64,000 bases of DNA from an uncultured Leptospirales bacterium (GCA_964624235.1 CAZUXY010000001.1:3016-67015), one strand, 5' to 3'; counted from the stretch's first letter, positions 4,607 to 31,563 are shown. Notes: a model not told the origin generated them from the sequence alone. Numbers and translations are program-made.

Positions 4607-5560
4607 AATGAACCAGCCTTCATTATTAAATATTCTCTCTCATCAAGACGCCAGGGTTCTTCCGCCAGCCGGTCACGGCATTTCGGCAACGCTATATTTC
4701 AGTCAGTATGCTCCCCGGTCTATCGGCGCCGTTTCATTTATTCAACTCAAATTTATACACTATAGACAGTAACAGGTCGAAATCAATAATTTTATTACAT
4801 TATAATCGTCCTTGTCTAAACATGTCCACCTGGCATTATGATTACATTTGCAGTATTAATTAACACTGAAAACAAGTTCGCTTGCCGTCAAACATATGTC
4901 AGCCGGTGCCCAATCCCATCTATAACGCCCTTGCGAACTTTCATTATATTTTCCTTTATGACCCGTGTAGCGGGACTGGGCAGTGGACCTTTAAATTACT
5001 TTGTATCAATGGATTTATTTGGTGCTGTTATAAAAACGCTTCCGGGAAAAACGTTTCGTCTAAGGATGATATTTCAGCGCGAGCTATGTCCAGTTCCTCT
5101 ACCTGCCTGCTTGCGGCGCAGCATACTCTGTGTACAGCCTTTCATGTAACACCGGAAAGATTGTTCCTGAGACACGGAGTGGCATCATTCTCCCCTTTTA
5201 CGAAGAAACCATTGGATGTCGCACCTTCGGCGACGTACCTCGCAGAATCGAGCAGGAGTACCATAGGGAATCAGCGCCGTACAGCTTCCTTTTGGGCTAT
5301 GTATGTGTACATAATTACTCACTTCCTATGCATGGACTGAAATTGACGACGGGTCCGGCTTTCGGCAAGCCGATACGGTAAACTACATCGGTGTGACCAT
5401 GGCCTCCCGGTCAACCTCCAGCACGGCAAAGTCAACACAAAAGACGACAATGTTTATCTACGAATTCAACGGAACACCTCACACGATGCCAACCGAAAAA
5501 TAAGTACCGATTTATATTATTGAATCCTAACTCGGTATGTAATGAAATTATAAATATATT

Positions 5561-5590
5561 TCTTGACAAGAATAAATTGTATGAATATAC
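5561..5590 (+). promoter_or_regulatory. putative sigma70 promoter with an overlapping small palindrome upstream of the TetR gene
   Basis: TTGACA, a 17-nt spacer, then TATACA about 30 nt upstream of the tetR ATG. The palindrome TGTAT-gaat-ATACA overlaps the -10 and is a candidate autoregulatory operator. Confidence 0.3.
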
Positions 5591-5620
5591 ATTTAATAAA
5601 AATTCATTTTTAAGGAAACC

Positions 5621-6214
5621 ATGGGAAGAAAAAGCAATCAGGATATCCGCCAAATGGAAATCCTCCTTCATTATTATGAAGTGTTAAAAACCGAAGGCGT
5701 CGAAGGAGCATCTCTCGCAAAAGTAGCTGAGCGCATGAAGTGCTACCCCAGCATACTGATTCATTATTTTAAAAATAAAGATAATATGACCGTCGCTCTC
5801 GTCGACAACGTAACAAAAAAGTATGAAGATAGTTTTATCCGACAAGCTGAAAGCATAACAGATCAAAAAAAACGTTTATTATTTATCATTAATTCAATGC
5901 TGAGTCCTCGCTGGACAGGCATACTGGATCCCGATGTATTCTACGCCCTTCTATACCTTGCCATGAGAAATAAAAAAATCAAAACAAGAATTCAAAGGAT
6001 GTACACCAGATTAAATGATTTTATTGTTAAACAGATTAGTTTATTTCGGGAATCAGGAGGCAATCCAAAACAAACCGCTGAACACATAGCAGACATGATA
6101 ATAATGCTTGTAGAGGGATATGATTTATACCGTCTGGTCAAGGATGACCAAAAGGCCGTTAAGGTGTTGGAAAACTCGATCAAAACAATAATCATATCAA
6201 TGCTTGGCCTATAA
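5621..6214 (+). CDS. TetR/AcrR-family transcriptional regulator
   Basis: N-terminal HTH ASLAKVAERMKCYPSILIHYFKNKDNM fits the TetR_N signature. 197 aa with an all-helical ligand-binding region. Low GC. Confidence 0.8.
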   Translation: MGRKSNQDIRQMEILLHYYEVLKTEGVEGASLAKVAERMKCYPSILIHYFKNKDNMTVALVDNVTKKYEDSFIRQAESITDQKKRLLFIINSMLSPRWTGILDPDVFYALLYLAMRNKKIKTRIQRMYTRLNDFIVKQISLFRESGGNPKQTAEHIADMIIMLVEGYDLYRLVKDDQKAVKVLENSIKTIIISMLGL

Positions 6215-6280
6215 TAATTGTGGTATTGTAATTTAATATAGTACGAATGTTCAAACAATATATTAAATCAGGAGTGATCC

Positions 6281-7534
6281 ATGGGATACTATGATGGAGC
6301 AAACAACACAACAAATTTACCTGACAGCATAATGACAATGCCGAAAACAGGGAAAAGCCGGGAAGAAATCGAGGATATGCTTGAAGCACTGAACCAAAAG
6401 GATGCGCGGTATAATGAAGGCCACGCGGTACTCTATACCTTTACCCTACCCTGGCATGAAGTATCTGAACTAAGCCAGATGGCTTTTACTAAATATATGA
6501 AAAAGAACGCACTCCTTGATGATCTGTTTCCCAGCATAAAAAAAATGGAAGATGATGTTAAGAATATCTGCGCAAGTATTTTACATGGAGGAACAGAAGC
6601 AAAGGTGAATCTCACGTCAGGCGGCAGCGAAAGTATCTATTCCGCTCTAAACGCAGCTCGCCAATGGGCCAAAGAACACCGGCCGGAAATTACAAGACCT
6701 GAAATTGTAGTTCCATATACAATACATGCCGCCTTCAGCAAATGGTGCAAATACACTGATATAACCATAAAAAGAATTAAAGTCGGCCCCGATTATCGGG
6801 CGGATATAAAGGCCATGGAAGAAGCCATTACATCAAATACATTCCTGATAGCCGGTTCTGCGCCGTGCTGGTCCTATGGTCTGTATGATCCTATCGACAG
6901 ACTCACAGAATTAGCGGGAAAGTACAATTTGTGGATGCACTCCGATTGCTGTTTGGGGGGATATCTTGCACCATTTGTCGAAAAGCTTGGTTACAAGCTG
7001 CCGCCATATGATTTCCGCGTGAAAGGCCTTCATTCGATTTCTGCAGACCTTCATAAATACGGATGGACTGCAAAGCCCTTATCAACGGTCTTATACAGGA
7101 ACGAGGAACTTCAGAAGTACCACTATTGCAATGTCGATGACTGGCCGTCGGGAATGTATCATTCAGAAGCGATACTGGGTTCCCGTTCGGCAGGACCCAT
7201 CGCGTCCGCATGGGCTGTAATCAACTATCTCGGCGAAGAAGGCTATCTGGAGCTCGCGCGCCGTATTATGGAAAACCGCGATAGATATATGAATGGTATA
7301 AACTCAATAGATGAACTTAAATGTTGGGATAATGATCTTTGTATCATAGTGTTTGAGACAGGCAGACTGGATACGTTCGAAGTGCTTGGATCCATGTATG
7401 CAAAAAAAGCCTATGTTTTCCCCATATTAGAGCCGCGGCTTATTCAAATCTGTCCAGATGCGGTTCAAAATCATCATATAGAATATTTCATCAATATTCT
7501 TCGCGATGTCGTCACCGAATTAAAAAAGAAGTGA
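6281..7534 (+). CDS. PLP-dependent group II decarboxylase-fold enzyme, sphingosine-1-phosphate lyase (SPL)-like, without a membrane anchor
   Basis: SISADLHKYGWTAKP closely matches the SPL PLP-lysine motif SISADTHKYG. Flanking segments LFPSIKKMEDDV, TSGGSESI, PEIVVPYTIHAAFSKW, SDCCLGGYLAPFVEKLGY and ILGSRSAGPIASAWAV resemble the SGPL1 core. At 417 aa it lacks the eukaryotic N-terminal TM/lumenal region. Confidence 0.75.
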   Translation: MGYYDGANNTTNLPDSIMTMPKTGKSREEIEDMLEALNQKDARYNEGHAVLYTFTLPWHEVSELSQMAFTKYMKKNALLDDLFPSIKKMEDDVKNICASILHGGTEAKVNLTSGGSESIYSALNAARQWAKEHRPEITRPEIVVPYTIHAAFSKWCKYTDITIKRIKVGPDYRADIKAMEEAITSNTFLIAGSAPCWSYGLYDPIDRLTELAGKYNLWMHSDCCLGGYLAPFVEKLGYKLPPYDFRVKGLHSISADLHKYGWTAKPLSTVLYRNEELQKYHYCNVDDWPSGMYHSEAILGSRSAGPIASAWAVINYLGEEGYLELARRIMENRDRYMNGINSIDELKCWDNDLCIIVFETGRLDTFEVLGSMYAKKAYVFPILEPRLIQICPDAVQNHHIEYFINILRDVVTELKKK

Positions 7535-7544
7535 GTAAAGTCTG

Positions 7545-8936
7545 ATGAATAACGACCACAGACTTCCCATACATGTGAAAATAGCCTACAGCAGCGCAGA
7601 GGGGGCACTTTCTATCGTGTATACCATAATTTACATGATCGGAATGTTTTTCTTTACCGACATCGCCGGACTATCGCCTTCAATTGCCGGCGCCATTATG
7701 ATGACCGGCACGATCTTCAACGCGATATTTGATCCCCTGGCAGGCATGCTTTCCGACAGAGTCACCACTCCACTGGGACGCAGACGGGCATTTCTGTTAT
7801 TTTCCGCGGTTCCTTACGGAATCACCGCAATTTTTCTCTTTACCGATTTCAACTTCGCTTCACCTTACCGTGAGATATACTATTTTATTATAATAACCGT
7901 ATTCTTCTGGTTTTTTTCAGCCATTAATGTTCCCTATTCATCGCTATCCGCGGAAATGACCTCTTCGTATGATGAAAGAACATCGCTGCTCGGTTGGCGT
8001 GCCGGGGTCAGTCAATTGGGGTCATTGATCGGTGCGGGATTGCCTCTTTTATTGGTTTCATTTTTCACCGCAAAACTTTTATCGAGAAACGCAGCATGGT
8101 CCGCAATGGGTACCTGTTTTGGTTTGCTCTGTATTCCTCTTATTCTCACAACCTGGCGATTTACCAGAGGATATGAGACTTATTTTCTTAAAAACGAATC
8201 TTCTTTTAGAAAATCACTTTCCGGAATTACTTCCAACACCAGTCTGCTTATGACCATCGGCATGTACACATTCGGGTTAATGGCCGTTACAGCAACCGGA
8301 TCTATTAGTATTTATTACATGACCTGTTATCTGGGATTTAACGATTTGCAGGTATCATTATATCTCGCAATCTTATTCGGGGGAAACGTCATATGGGTAC
8401 CTGCTATAGGAATAATCTCAAAAAAATTGAGCAAAAGACATGCGTATTTGATATTCGGAACAGTATGGGCGGTTTGCCAGATGTCTATTTATGCATTTAT
8501 AAATCCTGCTCATCACATATTTTTTCTCATCCTTTTACTAATCGGATCAAGCGGGCTTATCGCCGTGTTCATGATCGGCTGGGCGATGATTCCGGATTGC
8601 GTTGACGTGGATGAATATAGAACAGGAAAACGCCGGGAAGGTCTTTTTTTTGGAACCATGTTTTTTATCCAAAAGGCTTTCTGCGCCTTTTTGTTATTTC
8701 TGATCGGATTATTGTTATCCGGCATTGGATATGTCGCCAATTCCATTCAAACCGAGGAAACGATTGACGCAATCAGAATGATTATGGGTCCAGGCATTGT
8801 TTCATTGATCGTGATCAGCATCCTGTTTTGTTATCGTATTCCGCTGACACGAAAAAGACATCAGTTGATACGCAATGCCTTGATGCATGATAACAGCAAC
8901 AATTCATCGACGCGTGAAGAATTAAGTAAATTATAA
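7545..8936 (+). CDS. GPH-family (MelB/Mfsd2-like) major facilitator superfamily cation symporter
   Basis: About 12 predicted TM segments. DPLAGMLSDRVTTPLGRRRAF is the GPH-family loop 2-3 signature (D..G..SDR.....GRRRP-like). 463 aa. Immediately downstream of the SPL-like gene with an 8-nt gap. Confidence 0.8.
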   Translation: MNNDHRLPIHVKIAYSSAEGALSIVYTIIYMIGMFFFTDIAGLSPSIAGAIMMTGTIFNAIFDPLAGMLSDRVTTPLGRRRAFLLFSAVPYGITAIFLFTDFNFASPYREIYYFIIITVFFWFFSAINVPYSSLSAEMTSSYDERTSLLGWRAGVSQLGSLIGAGLPLLLVSFFTAKLLSRNAAWSAMGTCFGLLCIPLILTTWRFTRGYETYFLKNESSFRKSLSGITSNTSLLMTIGMYTFGLMAVTATGSISIYYMTCYLGFNDLQVSLYLAILFGGNVIWVPAIGIISKKLSKRHAYLIFGTVWAVCQMSIYAFINPAHHIFFLILLLIGSSGLIAVFMIGWAMIPDCVDVDEYRTGKRREGLFFGTMFFIQKAFCAFLLFLIGLLLSGIGYVANSIQTEETIDAIRMIMGPGIVSLIVISILFCYRIPLTRKRHQLIRNALMHDNSNNSSTREELSKL

Positions 8937-8999
8937 CAATATTTGAATTTTGTGAATTAAAAGGATCGAAGCGGCAATTTCAACAGGAGGTTTATTCAT

Positions 9000-10457
9000 A
9001 TGAACATAAGATTACTGTCTATATCAATCACCGGATTTGTTCTGGGTTTTTTAATCGCGGGACTGGCTATACCCTCGATTAAGAGAATCATAGTCCGGCA
9101 TGAACTGATAAAATACATTAATTGTGAATTTTCCGAATACCTGCCTCTACCCTATCACCTTATAACACCTAGTTCAATGCGGCATTTGGTCGGTGAAGCC
9201 CTGCCGGAAATATATACGTACCTGGATGATGAAATACTGGAACATGTATACTCTGCAATGGAAAAAAAGAATTCAATTCATATTGAATACGCGAAAAACA
9301 ATCCCGGTTCCGACGAAGCAATAGTCGGGTATATGGCGCAAACAAAGTTGATTTCTCAACTACATTTGTCCGATAAAGAAGCCCTGGAAAAAATCAGGGC
9401 ACTAGATGTCACCCTTCATGCCATGGTACCGGCACGATCGTTCACCGAATACTACTCCTCCCAATCGCCGAAAGGAGAGATCACGTTGCCCGCCGAATTT
9501 GAACCTTTAGAATCTGTCCTTGTCGCGTGGCCGATTTATTATCCCTATAACTGGATAATTCATACTGAATTTGTGAAATCCATCACCTCGGCTCACGCGG
9601 ATGTACATATAGTATTGCCCAATAAGTTCTGGCAGAAGGGAGTGGAGATGTTTCTTTCGATGAACAAGGTGCCGCTTGACCATGTACGATTCATCCATAC
9701 GCCGATTGATAATGTATGGATACGCGATTATGGTCCTACAACCGTGTTTCAAAAAAAAACCGGCAAAAAGTGCCTGATAGCAAATCCATATCTACCGAAC
9801 GGAGAGCCATTTCCGAAAAAGGATGGAGAAGTCCCGCTAGATATCGGCCGTTACTATGGCCTGCCAGTATACAGACTGCCTCTCGTAATTGAAGGAGGAA
9901 ACCTTATTTCAGACGGAAAGGGGACATCCATAATGTTCAACTCCCTGCTGAAGCGCAATCCCGACATCACCGAGGAAACAACAAAAAAGATATTAAAAGA
10001 CTATTTTGGAATCGACAGGATGATCCTGCTTGAATGTCTGAAAGGAGAAATTACCGGCCATATCGATATGGTGGTGCGCTTTATTGACTCTGATACGATC
10101 ATGGTGGCTGAAAGCGAGCCCGGTTATAAATGGTATAACGATTTTGAGAAAATCGCGACACACCTTTCAGGATTAACCTCGTCTAACGGCTGTAAATATA
10201 AAATAGTAAGAGTTCCAATCGCGGACAACGATAATAACTCGGTTAATTTCTGGAGCTACGTCAACAGCCTTATCGTAAATAACACGGTGATTGTTCCTGT
10301 GTTCGGCGTACCCCAGGATGAGAAATCACTTGATATATACCGTAAGACGATGCCGAAATATAAAATAATCGCTATTAATATGCGCAACTACCAAGTGGGA
10401 TCCGTACATTGCCAGAGTAAAGAGATCCCCATCAGTATGTACGCTAAAAAGCGATAA
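9000..10457 (+). CDS. agmatine deiminase / Porphyromonas-type peptidyl-arginine deiminase family enzyme with an N-terminal TM anchor and a roughly 160-aa extension
   Basis: EFEPLESVLVAWPIYYP matches EWEPHEATWLAWPH. VWIRDYGP matches SWFRDSGP. LVIEGGNLISDGKGT, ITGHIDMVVRF and the C-terminal catalytic-Cys motif GSVHCQS match GGNIHCITQ. An N-terminal hydrophobic helix spans residues 5-27. SD-like AGGAGG 8 nt upstream. Confidence 0.75.
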   Translation: MNIRLLSISITGFVLGFLIAGLAIPSIKRIIVRHELIKYINCEFSEYLPLPYHLITPSSMRHLVGEALPEIYTYLDDEILEHVYSAMEKKNSIHIEYAKNNPGSDEAIVGYMAQTKLISQLHLSDKEALEKIRALDVTLHAMVPARSFTEYYSSQSPKGEITLPAEFEPLESVLVAWPIYYPYNWIIHTEFVKSITSAHADVHIVLPNKFWQKGVEMFLSMNKVPLDHVRFIHTPIDNVWIRDYGPTTVFQKKTGKKCLIANPYLPNGEPFPKKDGEVPLDIGRYYGLPVYRLPLVIEGGNLISDGKGTSIMFNSLLKRNPDITEETTKKILKDYFGIDRMILLECLKGEITGHIDMVVRFIDSDTIMVAESEPGYKWYNDFEKIATHLSGLTSSNGCKYKIVRVPIADNDNNSVNFWSYVNSLIVNNTVIVPVFGVPQDEKSLDIYRKTMPKYKIIAINMRNYQVGSVHCQSKEIPISMYAKKR

Positions 10458-10645
10458 TCCTTTTTTCAGCACAAATTTCATAAAATATTTGCAGTAAGTG
10501 GCTGAAATCAATAACCTTATCTCATTACAAAAATCCTTGTCAAAGCATGTTCCTGTAATATAAATATTTAAGGTTTCGACCCCTGTCCGCGGTTTCCAGA
10601 GAGTGCGATATCGACGGGGACTATAAACACCCGCAGGAGCATCTA

Positions 10646-13159: not shown

Positions 13160-13243
13160 GGAGGGTTGTCTGAGCGGTCTATAGAGGCGGTCTTGAAAAC
13201 CGTTGGGTTAACAGCCCCGGGGGTTCGAATCCCTCACCCTCCG
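13160..13243 (+). tRNA. tRNA-Ser (anticodon TGA)
   Basis: Acceptor stem GGAGGGT/ACCCTCC. D-arm GTCTGAGCGGTCTATAGA. Anticodon loop CT-TGA-AA. Long variable arm typical of class II Ser. T-arm GGTTCGAATCC. Discriminator G. Confidence 0.8.
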
Positions 13244-13263
13244 CAGATACCTCAATTAATCAA

Positions 13264-13348
13264 GGAGAGATGCCCGAGAGGCCGAAGGGGACGGTTTGCT
13301 AAACCGTTGTACCATTAGGTACCAAGGGTTCGAATCCCTTTCTCTCCG
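13264..13348 (+). tRNA. tRNA-Ser (anticodon GCT)
   Basis: Acceptor GGAGAGA/TCTCTCC. Anticodon loop TT-GCT-AA. Long variable arm. T-loop GGTTCGAATCC. Confidence 0.8.
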
Positions 13349-13368
13349 ATATTATCGTCAGGAACAGG

Positions 13369-13833
13369 ATGATCACACGCGAGAAATTCCAGTCTGCGGT
13401 CTCAACGATCGCGACGAAAGCCCTTTTTCTGAAAGAAAAAGCCGTATACATATGGAAGCACGCTCCTTCGTACTGGAACGCGGTTTTTGAGAAAAAAAAC
13501 GAAGGCTACCTTGCGGCCGCGGCGTATATCCCGTTCATCGGCTGGCTGTTGCCGCTCTACCTGAAAGAAGAGAGTGATTTCTGCCAGGAGAGCGGCAAGA
13601 CGGGATTCATTCTGGCCATTTTTTTCACGGGCCTGGTATTAGGTCTTTTTTTCATCAACTTGTTTTTCATTCCCAGGGACTGGAGGGTGGTCCGTCTTAT
13701 CATGGTACTGCTGGTGTATGCATGCTACGCAGTGTACTTTCCTCTCTGCGGGTACGGGATGTACCTTTCGGTGCACGGAAAAAAACTTGAAATCCCGTTC
13801 CTTTCGCAGTATAGGAACATTATTCCGCTGTAA
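13369..13833 (+). CDS. hypothetical small integral membrane protein
   Basis: 154 aa with three to four hydrophobic helices (IPFIGWLLPLYL, GFILAIFFTGLVLGLFFINLFFI, LIMVLLVYACYAVYFPL). Sits between the tRNA genes. No catalytic motifs. Confidence 0.5.
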   Translation: MITREKFQSAVSTIATKALFLKEKAVYIWKHAPSYWNAVFEKKNEGYLAAAAYIPFIGWLLPLYLKEESDFCQESGKTGFILAIFFTGLVLGLFFINLFFIPRDWRVVRLIMVLLVYACYAVYFPLCGYGMYLSVHGKKLEIPFLSQYRNIIPL

Positions 13834-13846
13834 CCAGTAAACAAAC

Positions 13847-13920
13847 GCGTCCATAGCTCAGTTGGATAGAGCGCCGGACTACGAATCCGTAGGTCAGAGG
13901 TTCGAATCCTCTTGGACGCA
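13847..13920 (+). tRNA. tRNA-Arg (anticodon ACG)
   Basis: Acceptor GCGTCCA/TGGACGC. D-arm AGCTCAGTTGGATAGAGC. Anticodon loop CT-ACG-AA. T-arm GGTTCGAATCC. Discriminator A. Confidence 0.8.
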
Positions 13921-25637: not shown

Positions 25638-28214
25638 TTATTTGAAAATAACTGTTTTGCCGTTGCTGTCTATCTTGACATTCTGTTCGGCGGCGAGTTC
25701 ACCGCCCAGCAGCCGTACCGACAGCGGGTTCAGAAGGTGTTTCTGTATGGCCCGTTTCAGGGGACGGGCCCCGAATTGAGGGTCGAACCCCGCTTCCACC
25801 AGAAAATCCAGGGCTTTCTGGGTGAGTTCCAGATGAACGCCCCTTTCACGCAGGCGCCTGCCGACCTCGTTCATCTGCAGTTTCACGATTTCCCTGATAT
25901 GCGTCTTCTCCAGGGGGTTGAAGATAATTACCTCGTCCACACGGTTCAGAAATTCTGGCTTGAAGTGGAGTTTCAGTTCCTGTTCCACGCCCTTACGCCG
26001 GTCTCCAATGGGGATGGAGGGGTCGGCGATGTAGGCGGTGCCGATGTTGGAAGTCATTATGATCAGGGTGTTCCTGAAATCGACGGTACGCCCCTTGGAG
26101 TCGGTGAGCCTGCCCTCGTCCAGTATCTGCAGAAAAATGTTGAACACGTCATGATGCGCCTTTTCTATCTCATCGAAGAGCAGCACCGAATAGGGACGGC
26201 GCCGTATGGCCTCGGTAAGCTGCCCGCCTTCATCGTATCCCACGTATCCCGGGGGAGCCCCGATGAGGCGCGCCACCGAATGCTTTTCCATATATTCAGA
26301 CATGTCTATACGCACGATGGCCTTTTCGTCATTGAAGAGAAACTCCGCCACCGCTTTGGCGGTCTCGGTTTTCCCCACACCGGTCGGTCCCAGAAATATA
26401 AATGAACCCATGGGACGGTTGGGATCCTGCATGCCCGAACGCGACCGCCTTACCGCATCCGATATTGCGATGATGGCCTCCTGCTGGCCCACCACACGCT
26501 GTTCGATGATCTTTTCCATTTTCAGGAGTTTTTCCTTTTCCCCTTCGAGCATCTTGCTCACCGGGACCCCGGTCCACCGGGACACCACCTCGGCGATTTC
26601 CTGTTCGGTCACCTCTTCCTTGAGCAGGCTTTTTTCCTTCTGGATTTCGCCCAGCCGCGCGTTAAGTTCTGTGAGCTTTTTCTCGAGTTCAATGATCTTT
26701 CCGTAGCGTATCTCGGCAACCCGGTTCAAGTTGCCCTCCCGCTCGGCTTTCTGCTCTTCGGTGCGCAGCATTTCTATCTGTTCCTTGATCTCGCGGCTCT
26801 GCCCTATCACCTCTTTCTCGGCCTTCCAGTGGCCCACCAGGTCGTTTTTCCTCTCATTGAGGTTGGCCAGTTCTTCCTCGATTCCCGAGAGTCTTTCCTT
26901 TGAAGCCTTGTCCTTTTCTTTCTTCACGGCCTCTTTTTCCACCGTCAGCTGGCGTATCTTTCGTTCTATCTCGTCGATCTCGGTGGGCATGGAGTCTATC
27001 TCCATTTTGATCCTCGAGGCCGATTCATCTATAAGGTCCACCGCCTTGTCGGGCAGAAAACGGTCTGTGATGTAGCGGTCCGAGAGCACCGCCGCCGCCA
27101 CCACCGCTGAATCTGAAATCCTCACCCCGTGATGCACCTCGTATTTTTCCTTCAGACCCCGTAGAATCGAAATGGTGTCCTCGACACCGGGTTCTGAGGT
27201 ATAGACCGGTTGAAAGCGCCGTTCCAGCGCCTTGTCTTTTTCTATGTATTTCTGGTATTCGTTAAGGGTGGTGGCGCCGATGCAACGCAACTCGCCCCGC
27301 GCCAGGGCCGGCTTCAGCATGTTCGAGGCGTCCATAGAACCTTCTGCCGCGCCGGCGCCCACCAGGGTATGGAGCTCATCGATAAAGAGTACCACCTCGC
27401 CCTCGGACTCCTCGATCTCCTGGATGACGGCCTTAAGCCGTTCCTCGAACTCACCGCGGTATTTCGCACCGGCGATGAGCGCCCCCATGTCCAGCGCGAC
27501 CAGCCGTTTGCCTTTTAAATTTTCAGGAACGTCTCCCGCGATGATCCGCTGGGCGAGTCCTTCCACGATGGCGGTCTTGCCCACGCCGGGTTCGCCTATA
27601 AGTACTGGATTGTTCTTGGTGCGGCGGGTAAGCACCTGCATCACCCGGCGGATTTCCTCGTCGCGGCCTATTACCGGATCAAGCTTGCCCACCCTGGCAA
27701 GCCGGGTGAGGTCCCTGCTGTAGCGCTCGAGCGCGTTGTATTTTTCTTCGGCCGAGGGATCGGTGACTCGCTTGCTACCCCGGATATCCATAAGCACTTT
27801 CAGTATGTTTTCGCGTGAAAGTCCATGGGCCTTGAGGATTTTCCCGGCTGAACCGCTGCTGCCGGCGAGCGCCAGTATCATATGCTCTGTGCTCATATAC
27901 AGGTCTTTGAGCTTTACCGCTTCGTTCCATGCTTCGTTCAGCACGTCGCGCAGTGCGGCGGCCATGGCCCCTCCGCCGGGACCGCCGCCTATCTGCTTGG
28001 GCAGTTCCTTAATGGCGCGGTCCACCTCGTTCTTTATTTCATACGGAGACACTCCGGCCTTCATGGCAATAGTGTGGAATATCCCCTCCTCCTGATTCAC
28101 CAGGGCCTTAAGAAGGTGCTCAGTCTGTATTTCGTAATGATTATTGCTCGTGGCTTCGTTCTGCGCCCCTGCGATGGCGTCCTGCGCCTTGAGCGTTAAT
28201 TTATCCATACGCAT
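25638..28214 (-). CDS. clpB: ATP-dependent chaperone ClpB
   Basis: 858 aa. N-domain, two AAA+ modules (GEPGVGKT and GPTGVGKT Walker A motifs) and a long middle coiled-coil. Full-length collinear ClpB architecture. Confidence 0.95.
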
Positions 28215-28530
28215 AATGCGTCCTCCAGTAGTAACGGGTTTTCGGGCAGGAAAAACCTTCAGTTAAAAACTTCGGGGGTTCGGACAGTCTGAATTACACA
28301 CAAACCCTCACCCATGAGGGCCACTCTCCCTTTCACAAAACGATACTGGATCAGGGATCGTTTTATCTCTCTTTTACATTAAAATCTACAACAAAATCAT
28401 CCATCCGTCAACAACGAACTCGGGTTTTAGTGATTCTGATCTGCAAACCGAATATCCACCCGTTAGGTGATGTCGAAGGTTTGTATTACAGGATTCCGGT
28501 TACCTTGCACCGAATAGCACGACACGGAAC

Positions 28531-29099
28531 TCAGGTAATGGGGAAAGACCGTATACCTTCAATCCACGCGGCGGCATGTTGCACGGTCTTGAGATGTATC
28601 GTACCATCGTAGAGATTCCCTGCGCTGCCGACTATACCGTCATAATCCTTCCGCAGACACTGGAAAAACGCAGGCCAATATACGTAACCGGGGACTAAAA
28701 AGTGTACCTTCAGGTGCCGGTACAGCTGGTATATCATTGCACATTCCTTGCGGGGACTGCGGTTTCCATGCTCAGGTAAATTGCATTTTTTAAACTGCTG
28801 GAGAAAACCCGCGTGATCGTCGAAACCATCCGGAAACCCGTCACACTTTTTTTGAAAGAGGGATCCCCGTATTCGACTGGATTCTGACGGCCTTTCAGGT
28901 TACAGATATGACCATTCTTTACCACGGTATAATGAATACACGCGACCGGTGATGACAGGCAGTAAGAATGCACAGGATAAATACATGAATTGGCATCAGA
29001 ATTATAAAAAGAGAGTGCAGGGCATAGATCCTGCACTCTCTCCCGGAGAAACTCCGGATTGGTGAAACGGTTTTGCATAAACCCCGTATAAAACGGCAA
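28531..29099 (-). pseudogene. hypothetical Cys-rich protein split across two overlapping frames (121 aa + 68 aa), a possible frameshifted gene
   Basis: Minus-strand ORFs 28734-29099 and 28531-28737 are in tandem and overlap by ATGA. No family recognised. The arrangement could be translational coupling of two small genes or a +1/-1 disruption. Confidence 0.3.
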
Positions 29100-29120
29100 A
29101 TTCGTAATTACACTTTCATA

Positions 29121-29474
29121 TTATAGCCTGTTCGCCATCTGATCGCTGCGACCGGCCCTACCCCAGACGGACGTGGAGTCGGGAACGCGCCTGATGGACC
29201 TGACCACCAGATCTTTTCTGCCTCCCAGCATGTTCATTACCGCGGCGCTTATAACCGCCACAATCTCATTGTTGTCTGAAACGACGGCTTTCGTTTCTAC
29301 ATATGACTGTTCCTTTACCTCCGCAACCCCCGCCGCGTTATTTTTCTTTCCCGAAAAAAAGAACTCCAATGTCTTGATAAAAAACGCCAGAAATATGAGC
29401 ACGGTAAAAGTAGTACCCATTCCCAATAGCGTCAGCAAAAGACCCAGCGTCAATTTTTCTAAACTGTCCATCAT
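29121..29474 (-). CDS. OadG/MmdD-family small subunit (Na+-translocating decarboxylase gamma/delta-like), orphan paralogue
   Basis: 117 aa. N-terminal TM LGLLLTLLGMGTTFTVLIFLAF. Shares roughly 55% identity with the in-operon copy at 32014-32364, including the C-terminal tail VVRSIRR..VWGR.GR.DQMA.RL. Confidence 0.65.
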   Translation of the reverse strand: MMDSLEKLTLGLLLTLLGMGTTFTVLIFLAFFIKTLEFFFSGKKNNAAGVAEVKEQSYVETKAVVSDNNEIVAVISAAVMNMLGGRKDLVVRSIRRVPDSTSVWGRAGRSDQMANRL

Positions 29475-29759
29475 AAACCTCCGATTAACTGAATTGTTGT
29501 TTTACTTCAGCACTTGAATCGCTGTACCTGAAACCCGCATGATGGACCATTTGGCACCGCGAGTTATAAGAATAAAATATTTCCCTTTTTCTACCCGCAC
29601 AACCATTCAGGTTTTAAGCACCAGACAGTGATACTTCATTCCCAGGTTTCGTCTTGTAGTTGAGGCAGTCCCCGCTTTTTGCAGGATAAACCATGTTCCT
29701 TCTTCTATTACGCTCCGGTCAGGCGCTATCGTTTCCTTATGAGGGCCCATAAACGCAAT

Positions 29760-29930
29760 AGATAAATAAACACAGTAAAATGTATAGTATATAATATACT
29801 ACTTAAAAATATTATTTAAAGAAAATATTTATTATAATATAATAAATAAATATATAAATATATTTTATGCTATTATGTTTATTTGTATTTGGCTATATTT
29901 ATAGACATTATTTTACTCAATTTACATGAC
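29760..29930. other. extreme AT-rich tract (about 170 bp, more than 85% A+T) upstream of the orphan oadG-like gene
   Basis: TAAATAAACACAGTAAAATGTATAGTATATAATATACTACTTAAAAATATTATTTAAAGAAAATATTTATTATAATATAATAAATAAATATATAAATATATTTTATGC... The flanks are about 50% GC. Confidence 0.6.
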
Positions 29931-30274
29931 AATGGACACTCGATCCCGGTATTTCTTATATGACGACATTGTCGAAAAACCCCATGACCGCCAGGACATA
30001 CGTTTTCAGCCGTATTTGCTTGTTCATTAAAACAGTACGATGATACTACCGAAACAATATCTGCTCACTTTCAATTAATGTTATCCCGATTAATGCGATG
30101 AGCATGCAACAACGGTGACACGCATACTGCATCAAAAACATATTCAATCGGCAGGTTAAAGAATAAATCCTGAATGGGGTTTATCGATTCAAATACATCA
30201 ACTGTCCGTATATTTCAGTTGCGCGGTGAATACATCAGGGCAGTTCTAAAAAGAAACGCTGCGGGGATAGCGTA

Positions 30275-30312
30275 ATAAAAAACCCTCCCCCGCCGGCGGC
30301 GAAGGAGGGTTT
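30275..30312 (-). terminator. intrinsic terminator of the mmd operon
   Basis: On the minus strand: AACCCTCC-loop-GGAGGGTT followed by TTTTTT, 28 nt past the mmdB stop. Confidence 0.6.
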
Positions 30313-30339
30313 TCGTGGTTTATCAAATTTGAACCGGAA

Positions 30340-31563
30340 TTACATTCCGCTGCACATCGCCAGCAGAACACCGGCTGCAACCGCGGAACCGATAACACCG
30401 GCGACGTTGGGCCCCATGGCGTGCATCAGCAGAAAGTTTGCGGGATTATACTCCTGTCCCACCTTCTGCGAAACACGGGCGGCCATGGGAACGGCCGATA
30501 CGCCGGCAGAACCGATGAGAGGATTAACCTTGCCTCCGGAAACGATATACATGACTTTTCCAAAAATCACCCCGGCAGCGGTCCCGACCGAAAATGCCGC
30601 AAGTCCAAGAAATACTATACCGAGGGTCTTGGGCTGCAGAAAGAGCGCTCCATTCGCCGTTGCGCCGACCGTCGTCCCCAGGAAGATGGTGACAATGTTG
30701 ATCAGCTCGTTCTCGGCGGTCTTGGAAAGCCTGCTGAGTATCGGCTGAAACTTGATCGCTTCCCTGAAAAGATTACCCAGCATCAGCATTCCGATCAGAG
30801 GTGCGGCGGGCGGCAGTATGAGAGAAACCACCACCGTAACCAGCACCGGAAAAATGATCTTTTCAGTCGGCGATACGGGACGCAGCTGTTCCATCACCAC
30901 CTCGCGCTCTTTTTTGGTCGTGAGCGCTTTCATGATGGGAGGCTGAATCAGTGGCACCAGGGCCATGTACGAGTAGGCCGCGACGGCGATGGGGCCAAGC
31001 ATATGCGGCGCCAGTCGCGCGGTAAGGTATATGGCGGTTGGGCCGTCGGCGCCGCCGATGATCCCTATGGATGCCGCCTCCCTGATCGTATACGTCAGAC
31101 CGGGGATAAAATCCAGCAACAGGGCGCCGAGCAGCGTGGTGAAAATGCCGAACTGGGCGGCAGCACCGAGCAATATACTCTTGGGGTTGGCGATCAGGGG
31201 ACCGAAATCGGTCATGGCGCCGACGCCGAAGAAGATCAGCGGCGGGTATATTCCCATTTTAACACCCTGGTACAGGTAATACAACAGACCGCCGATCTCT
31301 TTCATCTTCTGTGTCGCGACACCTGTCGCCGGGTCGACCACCGTTTCATATATCGGCGCCGACATGAGGCCGGCCATGGGAAGGTTCGCCAGCAGCATGC
31401 CAAAGGCAATGGGAAGCAGCAGCAGCGGCTCGAATCCTTTTTTCAATGCCAGGTATATCAGCACGAACGATATTACTAGCATAACCCCTTCCTGCCAGGT
31501 AAAGGCGACAAAGCCTGTAGTCTGCAGGAATTTTACTATAGAATCAGTCAAAGACAATGACAT
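30340..31563 (-). CDS. mmdB: Na+-translocating methylmalonyl-CoA/oxaloacetate decarboxylase beta subunit (membrane pump subunit)
   Basis: 407 aa polytopic protein. N-terminal [18 protein letters not shown]..., conserved [11 protein letters not shown] and an aspartate-containing core match OadB/MmdB/GcdB. Confidence 0.9.

Follow-up and report, generated by a model that had tools for sequence, protein, structure and literature searches.

This study concerns a four-gene block in a 64,000-nucleotide (nt) stretch of DNA from an uncultured Leptospirales bacterium (GCA_964624235.1 CAZUXY010000001.1:3016-67015), hereafter called the window. The block lies between two divergent genes, encoding a glycerate kinase (GlyK) and a UDP-sugar pyrophosphorylase (UDPGP), which are 6,039 nt apart. 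It encodes a TetR-family regulator, a pyridoxal phosphate (PLP) enzyme of the sphingosine-1-phosphate lyase (SPL) clade, a transporter of the GPH family and a protein of the PAD family. We found that the block is a horizontally acquired island and that the same quartet recurs elsewhere. Its features are as follows (positions counted from the first base of the window).

4734-4844, unstranded: left copy of an imperfect direct repeat of ~110 nt found by local alignment; holds a promoter-like site toward the glycerate kinase gene
4845-5564, unstranded: non-coding left-hand part of the insert; Pfam, Rfam and tRNA searches gave no match
5565-5597, plus strand: -35-like TTGACA (5565-5570), then palindrome O1 (5577-5597, TTGTATGAATATACATTTAAT); block conserved in the related loci L007 and L042
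5621-6214, plus strand: TetR-family regulator gene (197 aa)
6239-6259, plus strand: second operator-like palindrome, O2 (TAGTACGAATGTTCAAACAAT), between the TetR and PLP genes; exact motif match, invariant across three quartet loci
6281-7534, plus strand: PLP enzyme gene (417 aa)
7545-8936, plus strand: GPH/MFS_2 transporter gene (463 aa)
9000-10457, plus strand: PAD_porph protein gene (485 aa)
10458-10566, unstranded: right copy of the ~110-nt direct repeat; adjoins the PAD stop codon on one side and leaves 80 nt to the UDPGP start codon on the other

The gaps within the block are 66, 10 and 63 nt long (5' to 3'), and no terminator-like site was found in any of the three. An initial annotation of the region had described a low-GC block, estimated by eye, and the computed values bear this out. 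The GC content of 4846-10457 was 0.4195, compared with 0.5224 in the rest of the window, and no other 5.6-kb window in the 64 kb had a lower value (mean: 0.514, standard deviation: 0.032). The GC content at third codon positions (GC3) of the quartet genes ranged from 0.386 to 0.474, which placed them as the bottom four among 46 open reading frames (ORFs; 0.629 ± 0.086). The tetranucleotide distance to the whole window also had its maximum at the island (0.324, compared with 0.161 ± 0.044). For the flanks, the estimate of about 50% GC for the glycerate kinase gene was roughly right (0.518), and that of about 58% for the UDPGP gene was too high (0.531).

A metagenome scan with the UDPGP protein yielded 80 loci, which were compared with the window proteins by tblastn. 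In the closest four (L047, L048, L050 and L074), the divergent GlyK and UDPGP genes were only 170–395 nt apart and the quartet was absent. Identity to the window was 59–73% for the glycerate kinase and 62–68% for UDPGP in these loci. ArgB followed downstream in L047, L048 and L050, as it does in the window; the contig of L074 stops within UDPGP.

The insert is bracketed by the two repeat copies, whose local alignment score was 45, compared with 12.9 ± 2.3 in 500 shuffles (maximum: 24). In L047, the repeat occurs once between the GlyK and UDPGP genes, and this copy matched both window copies (30 and 33, compared with ~10 ± 1.6). As the repeat stands at both ends of the insert and is single-copy in L047, the target stretch was duplicated on insertion. 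The duplication resembles that seen in the integration of a circular intermediate via a short homologous or attachment segment. The promoter-like site of the glycerate kinase gene lies in the left copy (TGGACA-18-TATAAT, 4828-4799, minus strand, 11/12 match). On the minus strand of the right copy (10458-10566), a perfect TTGACA -35 is retained, followed by a degraded -10. Were this site still active, the 3' end of the PAD gene would be transcribed in antisense from it.

No integrase, transposase or adjacent tRNA was found at the island. ORFs in the 1-kb gap at 4607-5620 had no Pfam match, and the gap had no Rfam or tRNA match, in agreement with the initial annotation, which had seen no mobility gene. 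The two other quartet loci, L007 and L042, lack a counterpart of the non-coding stretch of ~0.7 kb (4845-5564) upstream of their quartets. The stretch may be the remnant of a gene, perhaps one for mobility, or may be intergenic DNA from the donor. The tRNA genes Ser(TGA), Ser(GCT) and Arg(ACG) are located at 13160-13920, after argB. With 2.7 kb and two genes between them and the island, they can be dismissed as its site of insertion.

Deviant composition, an empty site and flanking repeats all mark the block as a genomic island; the remaining mark, an integrase, transposase or tRNA, is missing. This absence, together with dips in GC to 0.41–0.45 elsewhere in the window (2.3–3.5 kb and 28–30 kb), would fit the opposite view, in which the genes are ancestral at the site and the composition is ordinary local GC variation. 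We consider this hardly credible. It does not account for the empty site with conserved flanking genes in four relatives, for the bracketing repeat that is single-copy in L047 or for the same quartet in different contexts in L007 and L042, and the deviations in GC3 and tetranucleotides are the most extreme in the window. The four-gene block was horizontally acquired, as the initial annotation had proposed, and was inserted in the divergent GlyK/UDPGP promoter region. With its empty site and flanking repeats, it is a clean case of the acquisition of a small metabolic island in which no mobility gene is recognisable.

We also considered the GlyK-UDPGP site as an insertion hot spot and rejected this. 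More distant relatives carry CstA genes together with ADP-forming acyl-CoA synthetase or CoA-transferase genes in the same interval (L059, 5233-9004; L062, 3322-8742), and what sets L059 and L062 apart is an ordinary gene-order difference and not a further island.

A genome scan with the PAD-family alignment gave 31 loci; two more, L042 and L043, came from separate contig look-ups. The order TetR-PLP-GPH-PAD was found in L007, a metagenome-assembled genome (MAG) labelled Leptospirales, with 71–80% identity to the window, and in L042, a Logan contig, with 64–78% identity. The recurrence that the initial annotation had left to a neighbourhood search was thus found in two further genomes, and the flanking genes of the quartet differ among the window, L007 and L042. 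The module had a GC content of 0.407 in L007, compared with 0.533 in the flank, and of 0.506 in L042, compared with 0.574 and 0.519. TetR-PLP-GPH-PAD is a travelling module. Conservation of the quartet throughout the PAD family was rejected: among the 31 scanned loci, the full quartet was found only in L007 and a variant of it in L012 and L016. Outside the quartet and variant loci, the partners of PAD were MFS_1, SMR or DUF998 proteins.

The regulator matched PF18665 (TetR_C_37) with 52 bits (cut-off: 27). TetR_N matched residues 20-59 at 20.5 bits, slightly below its cut-off of 24. The protein is weakly BetI-like, as the NCBIfam BetI models gave an E-value of 7e-12 with scores far under their cut-offs. 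It is 80% identical to its counterpart in L007 and 64% to that in L042.

The non-coding DNA of the three quartet loci has diverged except for two blocks, one 5' of the TetR gene and one in the TetR-PLP gap. They contain O1 and O2, which share the palindrome TWGTAYGAA-NN-TTCAWACAAT. A search of the 64 kb with up to three mismatches returned only 5577-5597 and 6239-6259, with both strands matching at each; 0.07 matches were expected by chance. L007 has exact copies of the motif at both positions, and L042 has one before the PLP gene. The L042 site upstream of the TetR gene was conserved yet degenerate. Paired, conserved palindromes are the signature that would be expected of TetR operators. Their conservation 5' of both the TetR and the PLP genes argues that the quartet is one self-regulated unit, with TetR binding and co-transcription as predictions. 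The single operon of the initial annotation is consistent with the two palindromes and with the conserved gene order. A comparable arrangement is known from AguR of P. aeruginosa, a TetR repressor whose binding site at aguBA lies between -35 and -10 and which agmatine displaces (PMC4287709).

The PLP enzyme belongs to the group II decarboxylase fold family (PF00282, 55.8 bits, cut-off: 27). Its score against the MfnA equivalog model TIGR03812 was 209.9, under the cut-off of 299.4. Among solved structures, it was most similar to SPL enzymes, namely StSPL (3MAD, E 2e-79) and human SGPL1 (E 7e-67), followed by MfnA (E 1e-26). The alignment with 3MAD spans residues 19-375 and begins at StSPL residue ~70. 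In StSPL, PLP is bound by K311, D274, H201, H310, G168/T169 and S353, and the phosphate or phosphoethanolamine by Y105, N126, H129 and S353 with A103 and K317 (PMC10243590). The PLP-binding set is intact in the window enzyme: K259, K265, D222, H149, H258 and S301 correspond to StSPL K311, K317, D274, H201, H310 and S353. These residues were kept in 119–120 of 120 homologs, with S or T at the position of S353.

The residues specific for sphingosine-1-phosphate (S1P) fared differently. Asn126 is retained in the window enzyme, whereas His129 is replaced by Leu, and by V, Y, F or L across the family of the enzyme. The segment SGAVYxG, which bears Tyr105, is absent, and Tyr105 is aligned with Phe54 by HMMER or with a Leu by MAFFT. 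Moreover, the first ~50–70 residues of SPL (the N-terminal/membrane segment) are missing, so that the protein has 417 aa compared with at least 507. Its family consists of soluble bacterial proteins of ~427 aa, with more than 1,500 matches at E ≤1e-20. The name "SPL-like lyase" in the initial annotation holds for sequence similarity and for the PLP site, but not for S1P chemistry, and S1P lyase function was rejected on account of the replaced phosphate-binding residues Tyr105 and His129. An anti-phage role was also rejected: no PADLOC defence model fitted, and the enzyme cross-matched the SspA/DndA cysteine desulfurases only weakly.

The relatives of the enzyme adjoin amino-acid permease genes and not sphingolipid genes. 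The nearest homologs outside the quartets, P0074 (58%) and P0076 (57%), are each encoded directly downstream of an APC amino-acid permease gene, which is the usual placement of an amino-acid decarboxylase gene. Genes for S-adenosylmethionine (AdoMet) decarboxylase and ornithine/arginine decarboxylase are located near P0076. The window enzyme is a presumably active fold-type I, group II PLP enzyme of the SPL/MfnA clade, most likely an amino-acid decarboxylase and not an S1P lyase. Bacterial "S1P lyase" homologs of ~427 aa should accordingly not be annotated as lyases.

The transporter scored 247.9 against PF13347 (cut-off: 27) and only marginally above the cut-off of TIGR00792 (232.2, compared with 231.35). 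Both models match it over its full length, as expected of a GPH symporter of the kind of MelB, GusB, YagG and Mfsd2a. The initial annotation had placed it with Mfsd2, a preference that the data do not bear out: Mfsd2a (E 7e-22) and MelB (E 8e-19) were about equal as PDB matches, and no other structural relatives were found by sequence. Close relatives were few. The quartet copies were 68–72% identical, those in the variant PAD clusters L016 and L043 were 41–43% identical, and the next matches in the protein database were at 37%.

Neither a glycosidase nor a lipid gene lies near the window transporter, in contrast to what the known GPH symporters would suggest, and no glycosidase genes were found in the quartet loci, the variant loci or the loci of the 37%-identity relatives, which speaks against a glycoside, pentoside or hexuronide as the substrate. 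The latter loci contain genes for FAD amine oxidases, class-III or class-V aminotransferases and TetR regulators and a URO-D-like gene. Such neighbours suggest that the substrate is nitrogenous, which would be a novelty in the GPH family. A gene of the URO-D/MtaA-like methyltransferase fold accompanies the subfamily in L016 (5112-6284, PAD present) and in L128 (11114-12301, PAD absent). These neighbours in two unrelated loci hint that some substrates of the subfamily may be methylated amines.

The PAD protein has PF04371 as its sole Pfam match (187.8, residues 163-477). In its 485 aa, a membrane helix (~6-24) within a long helix (3-40) is followed by a helical domain (57-134) and the catalytic domain (163-477). 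The AlphaFold2 model had a pLDDT of 90.5 and a pTM of 0.89. A search of 5.8 billion proteins found ~58 near-full-length relatives of ~440–510 aa with 32–69% identity. In an alignment of 31 members, the N-terminal hydrophobic helix and the linker region of ~130 aa were conserved throughout, and E166, W240, R242, D243, H354, D356, H470 and C471 were invariant. Four of them, D243, H354, D356 and C471, are catalytic residues of the guanidino-modifying fold. The first 160 residues gave 11 matches among 1.84 billion representatives; one, P0030, is a known member, and the other 10 are family-sized or shorter. We read all 11 as probable members of the PAD family or fragments of them.

Foldseek matched the catalytic part only, to PPAD (E 1.4e-28, TM-score of 0.69 on the target) as the best structural match and to agmatine deiminases (E 1e-22 to 1e-26). 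PPAD is an extracytoplasmic enzyme. The fold match covers ~330–340 columns; no counterpart of the C-terminal domains of PPAD was seen in the window protein, which has the N-terminal anchor and the helical domain instead. The PPAD segment NRPRPN, with Arg152 and Arg154, which we take to bind the alpha-carboxylate of the substrate, aligns with NPYLPN in the window protein, and both Arg are replaced. In one family member, P0036, the N-terminus resembles a lipobox, a hint that the enzyme faces outward. We infer that the window protein is a membrane-tethered deiminase of guanidino groups with a helical domain specific to its family. The initial annotation was correct, according to Pfam and NCBIfam, in calling the TetR, GPH and PAD families and the membrane anchor, which is conserved in the PAD family. 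A literature search yielded no paper on PF04371 proteins with a membrane anchor or on these four genes together, and no specific names for the quartet proteins are on record beyond the automated "agmatine deiminase" and "GPH symporter".

ORFs around the PAD-family members were clustered, and representatives were scanned against Pfam and NCBIfam. A transporter was the most frequent neighbour: of the 29 genome loci with a called PAD gene, 21 had a GPH, MFS_1 or SMR gene beside it or close by. The type varied by lineage. GPH was found in the quartets, L016 and L043. MFS_1 was found in Alphaproteobacteria, Gemmatimonas and Burkholderiales, and a few kb off in Nostoc. SMR (PF00893) was found in Flavobacterium, a Sphingobacteriaceae MAG, Anaerolineaceae, Cytophagales and two Alphaproteobacteria. 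TetR genes were frequent near the PAD gene in several lineages.

In the Bacteriovoracaceae locus L016, the order is TetR, small ORF, GPH, URO-D-like, PAD, AguB, PLP decarboxylase, Amidohydro_2, GPH and gamma-aminobutyrate (GABA) transaminase. AguB lies directly downstream of PAD and exceeds the cut-off of TIGR03381 (440.7, compared with 410.25), as the GABA transaminase does that of TIGR00700 (549.6, compared with 506.65). L012 has the order CoA-transferase, PAD, CN-hydrolase, PLP decarboxylase, C45 hydrolase and class-III aminotransferase. Its CN-hydrolase falls in the ORF cluster of the L016 AguB; of the L012 proteins, only the C45 protein was itself scanned against NCBIfam. In L043, where PAD is 62% identical to that of the window, the order is C45, MFS, TetR_C_37, C45, PLP decarboxylase, aminotransferase, PAD, Amidohydro_2 and SDR. 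The PLP partner in the variant clusters is a group II enzyme 29–30% identical to that of the window, with PDB matches between SPL and MfnA. As it is a different group II enzyme, two enzymes appear to fill one role, and this role would not be SPL chemistry.

Other lineages differ. In the Patescibacteria MAGs L015, L018, L019 and L020, which have small genomes, PAD is always followed by a DUF998 membrane protein, which is unexpected for a catabolic enzyme. In the Alphaproteobacteria and Nostoc loci L027, L031, L032, L029 and L030, PAD lies in or beside a larger conserved cluster of variable membership, with genes for a Rieske oxygenase, an alpha/beta hydrolase, a metallo-beta-lactamase-fold protein, a BetI-type TetR, MFS_1, an M20 peptidase, a class-III aminotransferase and a flavin monooxygenase. 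Here the deiminase seems to be part of another, more complex catabolic pathway.

Our leading interpretation, which we hold tentatively and at a little less than an even chance, is that the module takes up a guanidino amino compound and decarboxylates and deiminates it by means of non-canonical parts. TetR would bind the two palindromic operators, one overlapping its own promoter and one before the PLP gene, and would leave them when a substrate or intermediate of the pathway is present. The GPH symporter would carry the compound across the membrane, presumably inward. The SPL-clade PLP enzyme would act on an arginine-like (guanidino) amino acid and take off its alpha-carboxyl group. The tethered PAD protein would hydrolyse the guanidino group to a ureido group with release of ammonia, and the product would be an N-carbamoyl amine, e.g. 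N-carbamoylputrescine. The order of decarboxylation and deimination would be set by the side of the membrane on which the deiminase lies. If it faces outward, deimination outside would be followed by import of the neutral ureido amino acid and its decarboxylation, and arginine would also give N-carbamoylputrescine. A citrulline decarboxylase route of this kind is mentioned in plant reviews (PMC8955586).

The initial annotation had held that this mix of enzymes fits no pathway, which was overstated: a decarboxylase, a deiminase, a transporter and a TetR regulator mirror the logic of the arginine decarboxylase/agmatine deiminase route, in which the decarboxylation step likewise stands before or after a deimination. 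The agmatine route of P. aeruginosa uses a PF04371 deiminase whose catalytic Cys, His and Asp recur in the window protein, and an AguB above the equivalog cut-off adjoins a relative of that protein in L016. The aguR-aguBA system also has a TetR-family repressor at a promoter operator (PMC4287709); in the window, the operator-like sites are predicted. The differences lie in the parts. The window deiminase has a membrane helix and a domain of ~130 aa found nowhere else and scores below the AguA cut-offs; the candidate decarboxylase is an SPL-clade group II enzyme and not SpeA, AdiA or a pyruvoyl enzyme; the transporter is a GPH protein and not an APC antiporter; and the island has no AguB. Hence, the logic of the pathway is known, and the component proteins are non-canonical. 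The agu2ABCA' operon of P. aeruginosa encodes a second agmatine deiminase system; it is an accessory, strain-variable agmatine operon that is said to detect environmental agmatine (PMC4211729, PMC4287709). It contains AguB and neither an SPL-clade enzyme nor a GPH transporter, and its likeness to the window operon is one of description only. One of the agu2ABCA' deiminases reportedly carries an export or lipoprotein signal.

Several points weigh against this interpretation. The PAD protein is far under the AguA equivalog cut-offs (TIGR03380: 115, compared with 381.8; NF010070: 120.7, compared with 483), and a cytosolic agmatine deiminase is not expected to carry a membrane anchor and an extra domain. 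The positive-inside rule splits the PAD family, with 16 members on one side, 9 on the other and 6 on neither. Neighbours of PAD vary widely between phyla, so that a single family-wide substrate is not assured, and those of the broad family of short SPL-like enzymes are heterogeneous (P0098 and P0115 were uninformative on function). Neither AguB, another enzyme acting on N-carbamoyl amines nor putrescine carbamoyltransferase was found in the island or the rest of the 64 kb. To our knowledge, GPH carriers are known for glycosides and lysolipids and not for amino acids or amines. Finally, the function of the quartet is predicted from sequence and gene context.

The tethered deiminase might instead serve detoxification or resistance. 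It would neutralise the positive charge of a toxic guanidino compound at the membrane (a natural product, a biocide or a cyanobacterial metabolite, for example), the transporter would remove the compound or its product and TetR would sense it. In other phyla, PAD does stand beside SMR (PF00893) or MFS_1 and TetR genes, as is typical of efflux loci, and the small-genome Patescibacteria carry it next to the DUF998 protein only. Many host MAGs apparently come from lakes and Microcystis-associated communities, going by their isolate names, and the lipobox-like N-terminus of P0036 suggests an extracytoplasmic enzyme. We nevertheless consider this unlikely, as resistance needs no partner with a PLP decarboxylase fold, and such a partner was present in five of five GPH-type loci (L001, L007, L042, L043 and L016) and in L012. 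Moreover, AguB and GABA transaminase as neighbours indicate nutrient catabolism, and GPH members are as a rule importers. If the module were biosynthetic, it would supply the cell itself with a carbamoylated amine or a precursor of polyamines, with the transporter exporting the product. A decarboxylase followed by a deiminase is indeed the first half of the arginine-to-putrescine route, and the homolog P0076 lies near the AdoMet and ornithine/arginine decarboxylase genes. This appears improbable to us: a TetR regulator with operators, a dedicated symporter and patchy horizontal spread typify inducible utilisation and not core biosynthesis, and no amidase that would complete the route was found in the island or the rest of the window.

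A lipid substrate is suggested by the top PDB matches, which were S1P lyases for the PLP enzyme (E 2e-79) and Mfsd2a for the transporter (E 7e-22), and by the tethering of the deiminase with its extra helical domain. An S1P-lyase-like enzyme, an Mfsd2-like lysolipid transporter and an anchored hydrolase would then degrade or remodel an amphiphilic amino lipid, such as a phosphorylated sphingoid base or a lipid whose head group is a guanidino group. We regard this as very improbable. The residues corresponding to StSPL Tyr105 and His129 are hydrophobic in the window enzyme and its ~427-aa family, the N-terminal segment of SPL is missing and MelB fits the transporter nearly as well (E 8e-19). 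In addition, the PLP partner of the related clusters, at 29–30% identity, has an MfnA score near that for SPL; these clusters contain AguB and GABA transaminase and no lipid enzymes, and close homologs of the window PLP enzyme are paired with amino-acid permeases.

Uptake and use of a guanidino amino compound remains the reading that we prefer. The departure from known systems could go further, and this we find possible but rather doubtful: the tethered PAD proteins would be an undescribed family in which the helical domain places the deiminase at the membrane to act on a substrate other than free agmatine (perhaps an extracellular or amphiphilic guanidino compound), the short SPL-clade enzymes would be a new class of amino-acid decarboxylases and the GPH carrier would transport a nitrogenous, non-glycoside solute. 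In that case, the three would make up a new, horizontally spreading route to use or neutralise guanidino compounds in at least 10 phyla. Three uncharacterised protein types come together in the quartet, i.e. a PF04371 deiminase with a unique domain, an SPL-clade enzyme minus the S1P-binding residues and a GPH transporter unlinked to sugars. Because the module brings a repressor of its own with a defined operator, a simple reporter or gel-shift screen could reveal which ligand induces it and thereby what its substrate is.

Elsewhere in the window, an ORF-poor stretch of low GC (0.34–0.48) lies at 28215-30339, next to a ClpB-like gene (25638-28214, minus strand). It had no Rfam match at the gathering score and no tandem repeats. 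Going by their translations, 29121-29474 and, beyond the stretch, 30340-31563 resemble small gamma and beta subunits of an oxaloacetate-decarboxylase-type pump.

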